Source: an uncultured bacterium
GTDB taxonomy: Bacteria > Patescibacteriota > Minisyncoccia > Phycocordibacterales > GWA1-40-21
Assembly: GCA_903868205.1 (NCBI GenBank)
Contig: CAIPUJ010000062.1
Coordinates: 1-27,228, forward strand
Direction of reading: 5' to 3'
DNA: 27,228 nt
Position 1 is the first letter of the stretch, and every line of letters begins with the position of its first letter. The notes beneath the pieces were generated by a model, which had not been told where the DNA came from, ran no database searches, and saw only the letters and a program-made list of their open reading frames with translations. Shown piece after piece: positions 241 to 23,921 of the stretch. The position numbers and the translations under genes were made by a program.

Positions 241-536
241 TCTTTACCCCGTGAAATAACTTTTAGATTTATTATATATGTATTATACGTATGTATTACA
301 TTCAACCAAAGACAAGAAATTGTACGTTGGTTGTACAAAAAATCTAAAAGTAAGATTTGAGGATCATAATAATGGTAGGGTTGAGTCTACAATAGACCGA
401 CGTCCACTTAAATTAATTTATTACGAATCCTGTTTAAATAAAGTTGATGCATTGCATCGTGAACTTTATTTAAAGTCAGCTTATGGTAAAAAAGTTTATC
501 AAAAGTCGTCTCAAATCTTATTTCATGGGGTGAAGA
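241..536. mobile_element. Candidate inverted-repeat-bounded cassette carrying the GIY-YIG gene
   Basis: TCTTTACCCCGTGAAATAA (241-259) and TTATTTCATGGGGTGAAGA (518-536) are inverted repeats matching at 17/19 positions (both differences are G.T-type). They enclose the whole GIY-YIG reading frame; the right repeat contains its natural stop. Confidence 0.55.
278..533 (+). pseudogene. Small GIY-YIG nuclease family protein with a +1 frameshift in an A6 run (488-493)
   Basis: N-terminus has the motif pattern YTYVL...LYVGCT..L..R...H...REL.LK. Removing one A from 488-493 gives the family-like ending YGKKFIKSRLKSYFMG with stop TGA at 531-533. As written, the frame runs on into secE. Confidence 0.75.
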
Positions 537-2737: not shown

Positions 2738-3292
2738 ATGAATAAGATTATTTTAGCTGTAGTTGGTTTGCCTGGATCTGGTAAGACAGAAGCAATAAAC
2801 TATCTCATGGAGAAATACAAATGGCCGAAAGCTTATTTCGGTGATGTTACTTTTGATGAAATGAAATTACGTGGTTTAGATATAAATGAAAAGAATGAAA
2901 GATTCGTGAGAGAAGATTTGAGGGCAAAATATGGCCAGCTTGTATATGCTCAAAAAGTTATTGAGAAAATTAAAAATATAAAAGAAGATACTAATGTTTT
3001 AGTTGAGAGTTTATATAGTTGGGATGAATATTTAGAATTCAAAAAAGAATTTGGGGATTCTTTTAAGGTACTGGCTATCTATTCTTCACCAGAAACTCGG
3101 ATCAAAAGACTTTCTAGTAGACCAGTTCGTCCGCTTTCTAGGGAAGAAGTTGAATCCAGAGATTATTCTCAGATAGAAAATCTTAAGCAGGCTGGGCCGA
3201 TAGCAAGGGCAGATTTTACAATAGTAAACGAGGGTGAAATGGGGGAATTGTGTAGCGAGATTGATAAAATTGTTTCAACTCTTATAAAATAA
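2738..3292 (+). CDS. P-loop nucleoside/nucleotide monophosphate kinase-fold protein (dephospho-CoA kinase/UPF0200-like)
   Basis: N-terminal Walker A GLPGSGKT; lid-like R..RL..R..R...RD motif; 184 aa. Confidence 0.75.
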   Translation: MNKIILAVVGLPGSGKTEAINYLMEKYKWPKAYFGDVTFDEMKLRGLDINEKNERFVREDLRAKYGQLVYAQKVIEKIKNIKEDTNVLVESLYSWDEYLEFKKEFGDSFKVLAIYSSPETRIKRLSSRPVRPLSREEVESRDYSQIENLKQAGPIARADFTIVNEGEMGELCSEIDKIVSTLIK

Positions 3293-14686: not shown

Positions 14687-14792
14687 ACTTTTTTGTTTTG
14701 ACAAAATAAATAAAAGGAGTTTAATACAATACAGATTCAGTTGTACGGGTTAAGGTGATCCGTGCATTTAAAATGGAAAGGTAGGTTAGGAA

Positions 14793-15077
14793 ATGTGTAG
14801 GACTCATAAAATGAGAAAACGTTGCCGTCTGACTAGTCATCGCCATGCGGCCCATCATGTTGATTTAAAACCTCAATCTGCAAGCAAAAAGGCTTTTAAG
14901 GAGGTTAAGCGTCGTATCATAAGGAGTTGTCATAAAGTTGAAGCTCGCATAAGGGGTTTCGAAATAAGAAAACATTCGCCGAATTATGGGGCTCTGGATA
15001 AGCTCTTTAAAAAAGCGGTATCTGTGAGTGTCGACGAAGGTGGGGAACTTTTGATAATAAATATCCCTCAATACTGA
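14793..15077 (+). CDS. Small basic hypothetical protein (94 aa)
   Basis: Open frame between a TTGACA (14698-14703) and a strong terminator; no recognised motif. Confidence 0.45.
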   Translation: MCRTHKMRKRCRLTSHRHAAHHVDLKPQSASKKAFKEVKRRIIRSCHKVEARIRGFEIRKHSPNYGALDKLFKKAVSVSVDEGGELLIINIPQY

Positions 15078-15088
15078 TTGAGTGTACG

Positions 15089-15115
15089 AACCCGGCTTAG
15101 GTAAGCCGGGTTTTT
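15089..15115 (+). terminator. Intrinsic terminator
   Basis: AACCCGGCTT-aggt-AAGCCGGGTT followed by TTT. Confidence 0.8.
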
Positions 15116-15153
15116 CTTTGCCTCTTTTTCTATTTCACTAAATTTGCTACAAT

Positions 15154-15426
15154 TCACCCATTAAAGTTTTTGCCAACGTTTTTGAAATGATGGTTGCTTA
15201 GATGGTCATACTTTTTAATGATATTACAGCTTAAAAGCAATTTCATATAAAAACAAAAACATTTCATTGGCAAAAATTTTGTTAGGGTGAACCCGTTAAA
15301 GTTTTTGCCAATGTTTATTAAAAATGTTATGTATATATTGCATAATATTGCCGTATTACTTATGTTATAATGAGTTTGCGTTGATTAACGATAAACAATT
15401 TTTGTTGGCAAAAATTTTGTTCGGGT
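15154..15426. repeat. Two abutting inverted-repeat-bounded units (137 and 136 bp) upstream of ileS
   Basis: Unit 1: TCACCCATTAAAGTTTTTGCCAA...TTGGCAAAAATTTTGTTAGGGTGA (15154-15290). Unit 2: ACCCGTTAAAGTTTTTGCCAA...TTGGCAAAAATTTTGTTCGGGT (15291-15426). The interiors (90 and 93 bp) differ. Confidence 0.85.
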
Positions 15427-15445
15427 AAACTAAATAAAAAAATAT

Positions 15446-18400
15446 ATGGATACACCCAAAAAGAGTAAAAATGCTGAAAGAGAAGAAGAATTATTAAAAT
15501 TTTGGCAGGAGAATAAAATTTTTGAAAAGACTTTAACGAAAGATTCACCAAAAGGTGAGTATGTCTTTTATGACGGACCTCCTTTTGCTACTGGTTTACC
15601 GCACTTCGGGCATATTCTTGCTGGAACAATGAAAGATTTTGTGGGCAGATATAAAACAATGAGAGGATACCATGTTCCAAGAAGATGGGGTTGGGATTGT
15701 CACGGTCTTCCTGTAGAAAATATTGTTCAAGATGAGATTGGTTTGAAATCAAAAAAAGATATTGAAGATTTTGGTTTAGAAAAATTCAATGATACCGCAA
15801 GAAGCAAAGTTTTTACATATGTAGATGATTGGAAAAAGATTGTTCCAAGAATGGGCCGTTTTGTAGATATGGAGAATGACTACAAGACGCTAAATCCGAG
15901 CTATACAGAAAGTGTTTGGTGGGCCTTTAAAAAATTACAGGATAAAGGATTGATTTACGAAGGTTTTAAATCAATGCATCTTTGTCCACAGTGTGGAACG
16001 ACTCTTTCAAACTTTGAGGTAGGGCAGGGATATAAAGATATTACTGATATTTCAGTAACAGCTAAATTTGAATTGATAGATGAGCCAGGAACATTTTTCC
16101 TTGCATGGACAACAACCCCTTGGACTCTTCCTGGTAACGTGGCTTTAGCTATAAATTCTGAAATTGATTATGTTAAAATTGTTGAAGTAGCGAAAACTAC
16201 TATTGGTGAATCTAATGGCAGATATGATTTACCAAGTGGAGAAAAATATATTTTAGCCAAGGCAATTTTTGCAAAAGAATCTCAGAAACTTACACCAGAT
16301 GGATCATCAGAAGTATACATCTATAACAATAAAAATTATAAAATATTAGAAACTTTTATTGGAGAAAAAATAGTTGGTAAATCATACAAACCACTTTTTG
16401 ATTATTACAATAACGACAAACTTAAAAACAGAGAAAATGGTTTTAAGGTATATTCTGCAAGTTTTGTAACTACTGAAGATGGTACTGGTATTGTGCATAT
16501 TGCACCGGCTTTTGGAGAAGACGATATGAATCTTGGAAAAGAAAAGAAACTTCCTTTTATCCAACATGTAAATATGGCTGGAGAATTTACTCCAGAAGTT
16601 TTTGACTTTGCAGGACAAAAAGTAAAACCAAAAGACGATCACCAGAAAGCAGATATTGATGTTATTAAATTTTTAGCAGGTAAAAATTCTCTATATGCAA
16701 AAGAAAAATTTACTCACTCATATCCTCATTGTTGGAGATGTGATACACCACTCCTAAACTACGCGACAAGCTCTTGGTTTGTTGAGGTTACAAAAATAAA
16801 AAATGATCTTATAGAAGCAAATAATAAAATCGGATGGGTACCGAAAGAAATAGGAGAGGGAAGATTTGGTAAGTGGCTTGAGAATGTTCGTGACTGGTCT
16901 ATTTCTCGTTCTAGATTCTGGGGCGCTCCTTTACCTGTGTGGAGATGTGAAAAATGTAAGGGTAATCATTTTGTGGGTTCAATAGAAGATATTAAAAAAC
17001 AAACAACAAGAAATAATAAATTCTTGGTTGTTCGTCATGGCGAAGCAGAAAGTAATGTTCTAGGTATTTTAAGTTCAAATCCAAAAGTAAATCATTCTCT
17101 TACACAAAATGGTAAAGATCAGGCTGTGGAAGCAGGGGACAAACTCAAAGATACAAAAGTAGATATTATTTATTGTTCTCCTTTTGTAAGAACAAAAGAA
17201 ACAGCAGAGCTTATTGCAAAACAGATTGGATATCCTGTGGAAAAAATAGTTTTTGATGAAAGACTTCATGAAATATATGTCGGTGTTCTTGATGGTAAAC
17301 CAGATGCAGAATATCAAGCATTCTTTGAATCAAGAGGTGCGAAGTTTTGGAAGACTCCAGAAGGAGGGGAGAACTATACTACTGTAAAAAACAGAATGAC
17401 TGATTTTCTTTATGATATAAATTCTAAAAATGAAGGTAAGAATATTTTAATTGTTTCCCACAATACACCTATCTGGCTTATGTTTGGTGGTGCTTCTGGT
17501 ATGACACCAGAGCAACTTATGGCGATGAGAGAAGCCGGTAAACCTTTTATTTATAACGCAGAAGTAAAAGAGCTTGAATTTGCAGCTATTCCTCACAATA
17601 GAAATTACGAATTAGATTTACACAGACCATTTATCGATGAGCTTATTTTGCCGTGTAAATGTGGTGGAGAAATGAAGCGCATCCCAGAAGTTTTTGATTG
17701 TTGGTTTGAATCAGGCTCAATGCCGTTTGCACAGTCTCATTATCCATTTGAGAATTTAGATAAATTTAATCCAGAAAAAGGTATTGGTTTCCCAGCAGAC
17801 TTTATCGCCGAAGGAGTAGATCAAACTAGAGGATGGTTTTATTCTATGCTTGTCCTTTCTGTTGCTTTGTTTGGTGAATCTTCTTATAAAAATGTTGTTG
17901 TAAATGGAATTGTTCTCGCTGAAGATGGGCAGAAGATGGCGAAGAGATTAAAAAATTATACTCCACCTATGGAGTTGGCAGATAAATTTAGCGCAGATGC
18001 AATGAGATATTACTTATTGTCTTCAAGTGTTATGAAAGCTGAAGATTTGAAATTCTCAGATGAAGGAGTAGATGAAGTCGTAAAAAAAGTAATTATGAGG
18101 CTTCAAAATGTTCATTCTTTCTACGAAATGTACGGAGGAAAAGATTTGAAAGAAAAAGTTGGAAATTCTCTCAATGTTTTGGATAAGTGGATTCTTGCAC
18201 GATTGAAAGAAACAGCAACACAGATGACAAAGTCTACAGAAAAATATGAGCTTGATAGAGCAACCTGGCCTATAGCTGACTTTATTGAAGATCTTTCCAC
18301 TTGGTTTCTAAGAAGATCAAGAGACAGATTCAAATCAGAAAATATTTCTGATAGAAATTTTGCTATAAATACAACAAAAGAAATTATTCTAAACGTTTCT

Positions 18401-19003
18401 AAACTTATCGCTCCATCAATGCCTTTTTTGGCTGAAGATTTGTATAAGAAAATTGGAGGAGAAAAAGAAAGCGTACATTTAGAAGCTTGGCCAGATGAAT
18501 TTGTAGGGGAACTTACAAAAGAAGAAGTCGAGACAATAGAAAATATGAAGGACGTCAGAAATGCTGTTTCTCTCGGGTTAGAATCTAGAGCAAAATCTGG
18601 AATTAAAGTCAGACAACCTTTAGCTAAAATACAAATTCAAAGTGAAAAGCTAAAAGGCAAACAGGAATACTTAGATTTGATTAAAGATGAAGTAAATGTG
18701 AAAGAAGCGATCACAGACAAAAGTATTTCTGAATTGGTAGTGCTTGATACAAATATTACTCCAGACTTAAAAGATGAAGGGGATATAAGAGATTTAATTA
18801 GAAGTATTCAAGAAGAAAGAAAGAATAAAAAACTAAGTCCAAATGATTTGATTGGACTTACTGTAGATACTAATGATATTGGCAAGAGTCTTGTAGAAAA
18901 GTTTAAAGATGAAATAGTTAGGGTTACAAATGTTAAGGATATTTCTTTCGGCCCAAACATTCAAGAAAACTCACCCGGTATTTTTATCAAGTTCTTAGTT
19001 TAG
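15446..19003 (+). CDS. ileS: Isoleucine--tRNA ligase, type 2, with an inserted histidine-phosphatase domain
   Basis: DGPPFATGLPHFGH, GWDCHGLP, WTTTPWTLPGN, EGVDQTRGWF, KMAKR; type-2-like C-terminus; RHG motif at residue 530. Confidence 0.96.
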   Translation: MDTPKKSKNAEREEELLKFWQENKIFEKTLTKDSPKGEYVFYDGPPFATGLPHFGHILAGTMKDFVGRYKTMRGYHVPRRWGWDCHGLPVENIVQDEIGLKSKKDIEDFGLEKFNDTARSKVFTYVDDWKKIVPRMGRFVDMENDYKTLNPSYTESVWWAFKKLQDKGLIYEGFKSMHLCPQCGTTLSNFEVGQGYKDITDISVTAKFELIDEPGTFFLAWTTTPWTLPGNVALAINSEIDYVKIVEVAKTTIGESNGRYDLPSGEKYILAKAIFAKESQKLTPDGSSEVYIYNNKNYKILETFIGEKIVGKSYKPLFDYYNNDKLKNRENGFKVYSASFVTTEDGTGIVHIAPAFGEDDMNLGKEKKLPFIQHVNMAGEFTPEVFDFAGQKVKPKDDHQKADIDVIKFLAGKNSLYAKEKFTHSYPHCWRCDTPLLNYATSSWFVEVTKIKNDLIEANNKIGWVPKEIGEGRFGKWLENVRDWSISRSRFWGAPLPVWRCEKCKGNHFVGSIEDIKKQTTRNNKFLVVRHGEAESNVLGILSSNPKVNHSLTQNGKDQAVEAGDKLKDTKVDIIYCSPFVRTKETAELIAKQIGYPVEKIVFDERLHEIYVGVLDGKPDAEYQAFFESRGAKFWKTPEGGENYTTVKNRMTDFLYDINSKNEGKNILIVSHNTPIWLMFGGASGMTPEQLMAMREAGKPFIYNAEVKELEFAAIPHNRNYELDLHRPFIDELILPCKCGGEMKRIPEVFDCWFESGSMPFAQSHYPFENLDKFNPEKGIGFPADFIAEGVDQTRGWFYSMLVLSVALFGESSYKNVVVNGIVLAEDGQKMAKRLKNYTPPMELADKFSADAMRYYLLSSSVMKAEDLKFSDEGVDEVVKKVIMRLQNVHSFYEMYGGKDLKEKVGNSLNVLDKWILARLKETATQMTKSTEKYELDRATWPIADFIEDLSTWFLRRSRDRFKSENISDRNFAINTTKEIILNVSKLIAPSMPFLAEDLYKKIGGEKESVHLEAWPDEFVGELTKEEVETIENMKDVRNAVSLGLESRAKSGIKVRQPLAKIQIQSEKLKGKQEYLDLIKDEVNVKEAITDKSISELVVLDTNITPDLKDEGDIRDLIRSIQEERKNKKLSPNDLIGLTVDTNDIGKSLVEKFKDEIVRVTNVKDISFGPNIQENSPGIFIKFLV

Positions 19004-23803: not shown

Positions 23804-23921
23804 CCCGTTAGAGACCGCGGTCGCTTGTTTGATAATAACGAGGATTTATTTTTTGAATTAAGCTTATTAAAATAATAATTAGATAAGGGGTGGTAAAGAC
23901 CGCGACCTGTCTCTAAACGGG
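23804..23921. mobile_element. 118-bp MITE-like element with a 6-bp flanking duplication
   Basis: Termini CCCGTTAGAGAC / GTCTCTAAACGGG, inner CGCGGTC/GACCGCG; ATGAAT directly repeated at 23798-23803 and 23922-23927. Confidence 0.7.

Follow-up and report, generated by a model that had tools for sequence, protein, structure and literature searches.

The window analysed here, a stretch of 27,228 nucleotides, is contig C62 of a 743-kb metagenome-assembled genome (34% GC, 98% complete) of the Paceibacterota (Patescibacteria/CPR), and its host is an ultra-small lake bacterium. Directly upstream of ileS, at 15154-15429, the window carries two units of ~140 bp with unrelated interiors. IleS has hundreds of relatives in the Patescibacteria, the closest of which is 91% identical. 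The 5' limit of the ileS control region is the terminator of the upstream transcription unit. The array starts directly 3' of the last T of the host extended -10 box, where unit 1 opens with TCACCC at 15154, and unit 2 terminates with GGGTAA at 15423-15428. The features of the control region are collected in Table 1, together with the nuclease ORF of a longer relative on another contig.

Table 1. Features of the ileS control region and the nuclease ORF of the longer relative (window coordinates unless a contig is named).
Feature	Position	Strand	Remarks
Intrinsic terminator of upstream transcription unit	15088..15113	+	11-bp GC-rich stem, then T run; kept at sister locus L031; context only
Host extended -10 box of ileS, TGcTACAAT (TGCTACAAT)	15145..15153	+	Same box in sister empty site
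Unit 1, non-autonomous hairpin element, promoter-less subfamily	15154..15291	+	5' arm 15154-15184, 3' arm 15254-15291
Unit 2, non-autonomous hairpin element carrying a predicted promoter	15288..15429	+	5' arm 15288-15319, 3' arm 15390-15429
Internal extended -10 box of unit 2, TGtTATAAT (TGTTATAAT)	15363..15371	+	Faces ileS; ends 51 nt before terminal GGGT
ileS, gene served by the array	15446..19003	+	1185 aa; ORF list, IleS relatives
GIY-YIG nuclease ORF of the longer relative	C115:2590-2859	-	89 aa; Pfam GIY-YIG 56.9 bits; no other domain

An initial annotation of this DNA had described two inverted-repeat-bounded units in tandem, and the sequence at 15140-15450 reads as it claimed with respect to the unit coordinates, the end motifs and both extended -10 boxes. 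It had also described the units as abutting without a gap and thereby creating a junction palindrome. The palindrome is present, its arms at 15265-15280 and 15298-15313 being 94% complementary, but the abutment is not exact: at the junction GGGTGAACCC (15285-15294) the four nucleotides TGAA (15288-15291) are common to both units, which therefore overlap. A repeat finder reported direct repeats in the window with periods of 135 and 138, and a 16-nt arm motif matched the window seven times with at most three mismatches, against 1.55 matches expected and with none of 100 shuffles reaching seven. The unit pair folds as two hairpins side by side. No ORF lies within the two units, and a scan of 14700-15700 against Rfam 15 matched no family, the best scores of 17-26 bits all being far under the thresholds.

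Unit 1 scored 79.5 bits in the sense and 28.9 bits in the antisense orientation with an nhmmer profile of the family described below, and 106 bits with the covariance model R1. Its predicted fold has an energy of -37.5 kcal/mol (z -5.0 against shuffled sequence), its interior is closest to that of C32:2512-2651 (69%), and no internal TGnTAnnnT box was found in it. Unit 2 scored 82.7 bits with nhmmer and 110 bits with R1, folds at -44.4 kcal/mol (z -5.9 against shuffled sequence) and shares 90% identity in its interior with C51:2094-2238, which is the distal unit of another tandem. Metagenome contigs from two public lake runs (X1 and X3) span the promoter-unit 1-unit 2 and the unit 2-ileS joints with zero differences; since these contigs bridge the joints, the tandem is not an artefact of this assembly alone, although the runs may be the source sample. 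In two further runs (X2 and X4), one joint that goes back by 138 hints at a unit 2-unit 2 junction, seen in single low-depth contigs from one study.

The two units at ileS belong to a dispersed family. The genome contains ~36 full copies, 137-150 bp long and without an ORF, each beginning with TCACCC and ending with GGGTAA, between which two arms of ~35-45 nt pair around a variable core. In the aligned copies the 5' arm reads TTCACCC-R-TTAAAGTTTTTGCCAA-TGTTTGTT and leads into the variable core, which is often followed by TGTGATATAAT and then by AAGTCGAAACAAACA; the 3' arm reads ATTTTTA-TTGGCAAAAATTTT-CTA-GGGTAAAT. The 5'-arm motif matched the genome 48 times, compared with 8 times for a reversed control, and pairing of arms across the genome gave 44 pairs, mostly 117-127 nt apart from core to core. 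The nhmmer profile recovered 40 loci, ~34 of them full-length, with one orientation clearly better than the other (~90 versus 28 bits). The near-identical ends and unrelated interiors noted at ileS are a property of the whole family, in which arms are 86% and interiors 42% identical in pairwise comparisons. Some interiors are nevertheless close to one another (84% identity between the interiors of C32a and C111), and interiors are inherited within lineages, copied along with the arms. An arm subfamily with A-C in place of G-T was considered as a possible inverted core and rejected, as its interiors have the same orientation as those of the other copies.

Further tandems occur at C32, C51 and C86, and one other genome of the genus (G012) has stacks of at least three units. 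The initial annotation had regarded the units as discrete, mobile, hairpin-defined and arranged head to tail, a view that would be undermined by an invariant unit number in the ileS leader together with ends confined to it. Neither was observed. Unit number in the ileS leader varies, with no unit at all in a sister genome, and the ends recur at ~36 other places in the genome.

The placement of these copies is highly uniform. Every full copy lies sense to the next gene, and in most copies the terminal GGG stands 3-9 nt before the ATG; the commonest form is GGGTAAATG, and an ATG directly after GGGTAA is the most frequent arrangement. The same placement before an ATG is seen in nine or more other genomes of the genus. 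At the other end, among the 53 full copies of this genome and genome G022 together, 33 have a TAnnnT hexamer that ends 1-6 nt, and usually exactly 3 nt, before the CCC (background 15%), and 15 of these 33 abutting -10 hexamers are TGn-extended. Immediately 5' of the element stands a T in 52 of 57 copies. The genes served include murJ, rnc, recR, ftsX, pilM, murB, rpiB and ileS, genes for an RNase J-like protein, an exonuclease, a dksA-like product and a phosphoketolase, and a tRNA-Thr gene; the downstream genes are functionally unrelated.

Many copies also carry a -10 box of their own. An internal TGnTAnnnT box ends 48-54 nt before the terminal GGGT in 20 of 33 copies, and in the tandems at ileS and at C32 the unit proximal to the gene has this box while the distal unit lacks it. 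At ileS, transcription probably starts from the internal box of unit 2 and would give an mRNA whose leader, ~68 nt long, contains the 3' arm only. A -10 hexamer in the leaderless layout is found 4-9 nt upstream of ~20% of crude gene starts in both this genome and the sister genome, and a Shine-Dalgarno-like motif precedes only 8-10% of crude gene starts in the same two genomes. The 16S 3' end, from which the use of Shine-Dalgarno pairing could be judged, was not found in either assembly.

Comparison with the sister genome (G041, listed as G011 among the genomes of the genus, with its ileS at locus L031) provided direct views of the sites without the element. Its IleS is the 91% identical relative, and the whole genome was compared. 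It has no copy of the family. For nearly all insertions of our genome (~35 sites) the two flanks lie 4-16 nt apart in the sister, mostly in the leaderless layout TGnTATAAT-N6-ATG. The empty ileS site of the sister consists of TGCTACAAT, 22 nt and the ATG. The -10 box is the same in the window, where it precedes the array and where the last ~20 nt of the sister leader can still be recognised. At the cleanest junctions (C68:6646, C66:13082, C11:3185 and C115:2588), TCACCC...GGGT(AA) is inserted with no duplication of the target, and at others the original spacer has lost 2-7 nt or has had them replaced, with no direct repeat. No target-site duplication was found at the junctions compared, including the exact junction at C115. 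The 3-4 nt that flank the CCC...GGG core were considered as a duplication and rejected, as the left side reads TT[C/A/T]A and the right side a constant TAAA, which are imperfect inverted ends. Together, the occupied and empty sites show that the element enters short-leader or leaderless genes in the few bases that separate the -10 hexamer from the start codon, in one orientation and with no target duplication.

The distribution in the genus is patchy. A covariance model built from the family alignment was run on 26 genomes of the genus, with matches on both strands counted, and detected the family in 16 of them, with 2 to 70 matches in carriers and none in the rest. With the arm motif, the family was absent from 16 other genera of the order that were sampled, three of which each gave a single chance-level match. 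Only ~5 of 30 sites, including rnc and ftsX, are common to our genome and the well-assembled G022, which otherwise has a plain promoter-ATG arrangement; at the rnc site, common to our genome, G015 and G022, only the arms have been conserved, not the interior. The few sites in common and the arms-only conservation at rnc point to a family that is old, still turning over and constrained in its arms. Loss of every copy in the sister lineage is a less likely alternative to gain in ours, and the pattern of presence and absence is comparative evidence that such elements move.

A parent for these short copies was found in the same genome. At C115:2588-2889, an element of 302 bp has the arms of the family (5' TTCACCCTGTAAAGTTTTTACTAA, 3' TTAGTAAAAATTTTTTAGGGTAA, the ACTAA/TTAGT variant) enclosing the ORF of an 89-aa, single-domain GIY-YIG nuclease. 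The stop codon of the nuclease is the TAA of GGGTAA and directly adjoins the ATG of the host gene (TAAATG). An exact empty site exists for this insertion: the sister has ACCAAT directly followed by ATG, whereas here TCACCC...GGGTAA stands between the same ACCAAT and ATG. The same layout, with a nuclease between the arms, was found in eight further copies in seven other genomes, and the arms of these copies show compensating changes (GCTAA/TTAGC, ACTAA/TTAGT). Four members of ~200 bp (C60:1870-2094, C86:190-406, C86:4742-4977 and C89:3919-4152) retain the beginning of this ORF and therefore look like deletion intermediates.

Orthologues of the nuclease with at least 70% identity are present in eight genomes (G000, which is this genome, G004, G007, G008, G010, G012, G017 and G022), all of which have 19-70 element matches, and none was found in the 10 element-free genomes of the genus. 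The chance that all eight would fall among the 16 carriers is ~0.008 if genomes are independent, which they are not. Copies without a close nuclease orthologue are found in G002 (~15 copies), G001, G014 and G006, although miniature copies can outlive their parent.

The nuclease itself resembles the Ssn family of hairpin-specific single-stranded-DNA nucleases. Members of this family (cd10448) are single-domain GIY-YIG proteins of ~94 aa that bind NTS/SRM, a hairpin-forming repeat that is directional (Chenal et al. 2025, PMC11893778). Our genome has four small GIY-YIG genes in addition to uvrC, and no small GIY-YIG gene was found in the sister genome. One of the four, at C66:11989-12270, is a canonical Ssn-type member with a flank that matches the NTS consensus at ~25 of 28 positions, and its protein is 35% identical to the C115 nuclease. 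The C115 nuclease is 49-55% identical to the products of two further small GIY-YIG genes that have end types of their own, one of which lies in the window at 241-536. Its closest solved structures are small UPF0213 GIY-YIG proteins, although the match is weak, and NCBIfam contains no specific family for it.

Based on these results, we consider it probable that the ileS units are tandem insertions of MITE- or REPIN-like miniatures of a ~300-bp parent element, which carries an Ssn-like GIY-YIG nuclease and targets promoters. Three other explanations for the units were weighed against this one.

The strongest of these, which we nevertheless regard as improbable, is that the units are host-selected cis-regulatory leaders, with a long sense-strand RNA hairpin that serves as an RNase III site or as a block to translation and that has spread among promoters and persisted through its tuning of expression, and that mobility is secondary or ancient. 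The conserved pairing of the arms counts in favour of the miniature-element explanation. We tested a model of three helices: an outer CACCC/GGGTG helix, a main helix of 14 bp and an inner helix of 8 bp. In the aligned copies, 92% of cells in the model were paired, compared with 35-59% when the partners were slid, and seven pairs had changed on both sides, a number that none of 500 shuffles reached; the compensatory changes include CCAA/TTGG to CTGA/TCAG and CACCC/GGGTG to CATCC/GGATG. Because the copies are related, these figures show that pairing has been kept in the family and are compatible with either RNA or single-stranded DNA as the folded form. In 32 of 33 copies the RNA of the sense strand folded more stably than that of the antisense strand (mean energies -34.7 versus -28.0 kcal/mol), a difference in keeping with a role as RNA. 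A G-U pair at columns 20/152, present in 28 of 33 copies, partly accounts for it, and given the common descent of the copies the asymmetry between strands may come from a founder.

A regulatory role would also fit the conservation of arms over interiors, the internal promoter kept at a fixed position and the copy that precedes the gene for RNase III itself. Because interiors decay but arms do not, even at the rnc site of three genomes, there may be host selection on the arms, and hence a host function rather than mere parasitism. On the other hand, the genes served have no functional theme, these genes are expressed in the sister species with no element in place, and no Rfam family matches. 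A transcript from the host -10 box would start after CACCC and would thus miss the outer stem. Furthermore, the nuclease-bearing members and the pattern of presence and absence require a mobile element in any case.

A second explanation, which we consider very unlikely, is that the units resemble REPINs or PATEs and are moved by a Y1 tyrosine transposase of the IS200/RAYT type, the GIY-YIG gene being a passenger. ORFs absent from the sister genome number 275; two Y1_Tnp genes of our genome (on C99 and C31) are both absent from the element-free sister, and within the genus 13 of the 16 carrier genomes have Y1_Tnp, as do 3 of the 10 element-free ones, which is a loose correlation. Oriented insertion 3' of a short motif with no target duplication is also typical of IS200/IS605 elements. 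However, the Y1 genes on C99 and C31 are flanked by unrelated GC-rich inverted repeats of their own, none of 12 Y1 loci examined in the genus is bracketed by arms of the family, and G002 and G010 have many copies and no Y1 gene. The gene that does lie between the arms, in eight genomes, is the GIY-YIG ORF. Searches of the genome with Pfam DDE_3 and DDE_Tnp_1 gave no match for a DDE transposase.

The third explanation, an integron-like miniature cassette array with attC-like folded sites, a tyrosine integrase and an attachment site behind the promoter, extends the likeness to a cassette array and to attC drawn in the initial annotation. It can account for a head-to-tail stack directly after a promoter, for the imperfect inverted ends with a conserved bubble in each unit and for a GTTAAAG motif near the 5' end, but it is scarcely credible given that the units have no ORF, that copies stand singly at ~30 different promoters rather than at one attI site, that the 3' end opposite GTTAAAG reads TTTTCTA in place of complementary RYYYAAC/GTTRRRY boxes (the columns are unpaired in the alignment), that the sole tyrosine recombinase of the genome lies on another contig (C52), and that these ends enclose the gene of a GIY-YIG nuclease and not that of an integrase.

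If the units are miniatures of the GIY-YIG parent, as we favour, the layout suggests how parent and miniatures might live within host promoters. The host -10 box, now followed by the 6 nt TCACCC, would place the transcription start at the purine after CCC, inside the element, and because of this spacing the element would be read from the captured promoter. In the parent, that promoter would express the nuclease, and since the stop codon of the nuclease overlaps the start codon of the host gene in TAAATG, translation of the two could be coupled. Most miniatures have the internal extended -10 box, ~50 nt from their 3' end, from which the host gene would again be transcribed. For ileS, the sequence predicts transcription probably from both the host promoter and the promoter of unit 2. 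The transcript from the host promoter would have a leader of ~290 nt with two long hairpins, and the ~68-nt leader from the unit 2 promoter would be largely unstructured.

With regard to mobilisation, we speculate that the folded arms are recognised in trans by the nuclease and cut by it as single-stranded DNA, and that the target is the single-stranded discriminator of open promoter complexes, from the -10 hexamer to +1. Attack on the single strand of an open complex would explain why the target is so narrow. The recognition of a folded structure, as had been proposed for the units at the outset, is plausible because the associated type of enzyme, the Ssn GIY-YIG nucleases, cuts only single-stranded hairpin DNA (PMC11893778). 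We tentatively propose that a single-domain GIY-YIG nuclease of the Ssn type could be the transposase of a new class of bacterial transposon, one that is recognised as a single folded strand, inserts without duplication into the melted -10/+1 region of leaderless promoters, uses the host promoter for its nuclease gene, returns translation to the host gene through TAAATG and, in its miniatures, provides a replacement promoter. This full mechanism is a possibility to which we attach considerably less confidence than to the origin of the ileS units themselves.

The genus offers a natural experiment, in which ~36 insertions can be set against a sister with none and in which exact empty sites, a parent, intermediates and miniatures are all available. 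The evidence shows where these elements land, namely in leaderless genes, within the 6 nt that separate the -10 box from the start codon, and a target this narrow suggests a mechanism that can be tested, which is attack on the single-stranded promoter bubble. The element may also be seen as a rewiring device, by which leaderless genes gain a long leader, a hairpin and a second (predicted) promoter, and this rewiring occurs in organisms with tiny genomes and few regulators. For annotation the family is relevant as well, since ~5% of the genes in this genome carry an insert in the control region. The ileS array is a candidate small instance of a promoter-targeting, GIY-YIG-associated family of hairpin transposons in CPR bacteria, and its full-length relative may represent a kind of bacterial transposon about which little is known.

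Among known systems, the closest comparison is with the Ssn nucleases. These cut only single-stranded DNA beside the hairpin, and repeats flank the Ssn genes in 42-71% of homologues, as in the NTS-ssnA-NTS arrangement of Neisseria meningitidis (PMC11893778). The layout is IS-like, although mobility has only been hypothesised, whereas a role in transformation has been shown (PMC11893778). As in that family, the protein described here is a GIY-YIG protein of ~90 aa without an extra domain, its gene is bracketed by inverted, hairpin-forming, directional repeats that are multiplied across the genome, and the presence of the nuclease accompanies a high number of repeats. In contrast to the Ssn arrangement, in which each flank forms a small hairpin of its own, the two flanks here pair with each other to form one long hairpin whose loop contains the nuclease gene. 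The arms have no sequence relationship to NTS, their repeats are 140-bp units with a predicted internal promoter, and insertion is specific to the interval between the -10 box and the ATG, with gains documented by ~35 empty sites. Searches of the literature on MITEs of CPR bacteria, leaderless promoters in Patescibacteria and later work on Ssn yielded nothing relevant beyond the paper on Ssn (PMC11893778).

Three further groups share part of the architecture. The REPIN/RAYT system and the PATEs derived from IS200/IS605 likewise have conserved inverted arms, a variable spacer and a hairpin. In these systems, too, the repeats bracket an enzyme gene that is present in one copy, the presumed substrate is a hairpin of single-stranded DNA, and insertion is oriented with no target duplication; the difference lies in the bracketed enzyme, which is here a GIY-YIG nuclease and not a Y1 HUH transposase. 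The Correia elements of Neisseria (CREE/NEMIS) are MITEs of ~100-150 bp with long inverted ends that very often lie next to genes, where they supply promoter elements and, when co-transcribed, form hairpins that RNase III is able to cut. They duplicate a TA target, are thought to be moved by a DDE transposase and insert in both orientations, and we know of no GIY-YIG-bearing parent for them. Our family is similar to them as a set of short, gene-adjacent, promoter-supplying elements with long inverted ends, but Correia elements also occur outside the stretch from the -10 box to the ATG and differ in their TA duplication and their two orientations. The attC sites of integrons are comparable in their imperfect inverted repeats of ~60-140 bp, their conserved unpaired bases, their tandem arrangement behind a promoter and their recognition as a folded single strand, which is inferred in our case. 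Here there is no cassette ORF, IntI or attI, the copies are dispersed and the ends are not R''/R' boxes.

Among the hallmarks of MITEs, the family displays dispersed short non-coding copies, presence/absence polymorphism and a longer coding parent, and lacks a target-site duplication. Correia elements, REPIN/RAYT and attC are functional analogues of the family, each failing at least one defining feature. What is new here is the link of the family to a nuclease-bearing parent, its empty sites and its genus-wide association with the nuclease.

Several pairs of nuclease and miniature element seem to coexist, all directed at -10 boxes, because the third type of ends listed below, found in another genome (L040), matches the ends that bracket a GIY-YIG gene elsewhere in the genome under study (G000). 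The palindromic element at 23804-23921 of the window, which differs from the family in the ileS leader, has ATGAAT on each side. In a different genome (L032), a relative of this element interrupts the -10 box of ileS, and the corresponding empty site was seen in L034. A second small GIY-YIG gene, at 241-536 of the window, is directly followed by the next gene. The outermost bases of its ends, TTYACCC, are similar to those of the ileS-leader family. The flank of the Ssn-type gene matches the Neisseria NTS consensus at ~25/28 positions, and the presence of such a gene with an NTS-like flank is notable for a CPR genome. Two Y1 transposase genes were also identified, neither of which is present in the sister genome G041; one of their GC-rich flanking repeats also occurs within the C99 ORF.

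Nuclease and transposase genes, palindromic elements and selected element copies (C-numbers, contigs; L-numbers, loci)
Feature	Position	Ends, flanks or setting
Second small GIY-YIG gene	window 241-536	ends of its own, inverted: TTTACCCCGTGAAATAA and complement
Different palindromic element	window 23804-23921	ends CCCGTTAGAG...CTCTAAACGGG; between TGcTATATT box and its gene
Relative of the preceding	L032:~2750-2830	inside ileS -10 box; duplication GATACAAT
Third end type	L040:~2900-3000	CCCCGTAGTAGATTTTGCC...; inside ileS -10 box in a further genome; TGCTA duplication
GIY-YIG gene	G000:C39:3447-3713	ends as in L040
Canonical Ssn-type GIY-YIG gene	G000:C66:11989-12270	flank TGTCATTCCCGTGAACACGGGAATCCAG
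Y1 (IS200/RAYT-like) transposase gene	G000:C99:2680-3360	own GC-rich inverted repeats
Y1 (IS200/RAYT-like) transposase gene	G000:C31:1280-1957	own GC-rich inverted repeats
Element copy	G000:C11:232-374 (L001)	31 nt 5' of tRNA-Thr gene, not a protein-coding gene
Element copies	G000:C100:1744-1887 and 3148-3291	inverted to each other, ~1.3 kb apart
Element copies before rnc	G000:C38:1915-2065; G022:C1:662179-662325; L207	three genomes of the genus

In single low-depth contigs from two public metagenome runs (X2 and X4), the 3' part of unit 2 is followed by a return to the unit junction, a step back of 138 at 15267-15404 of the window, which is the pattern expected from an allele that contains one more unit. 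The two C100 copies are identical, as are their flanks and the 120-aa dksA/traR-type zinc-finger genes downstream of them, and this pair represents an inverted duplication or else a fold-back introduced by assembly.

Across G000 and G041, crude calls of gene starts placed a TAnnnT hexamer 4-9 nt 5' of the ATG at ~20% of starts, with a peak at 6-7 nt, and a Shine-Dalgarno-like motif at only 8-10%. Most genes of this lineage seem to be initiated in the leaderless mode. Among individual element copies, those preceding rnc, the gene for RNase III, would place a long hairpin in its leader, an arrangement that recalls RNase III autoregulation.
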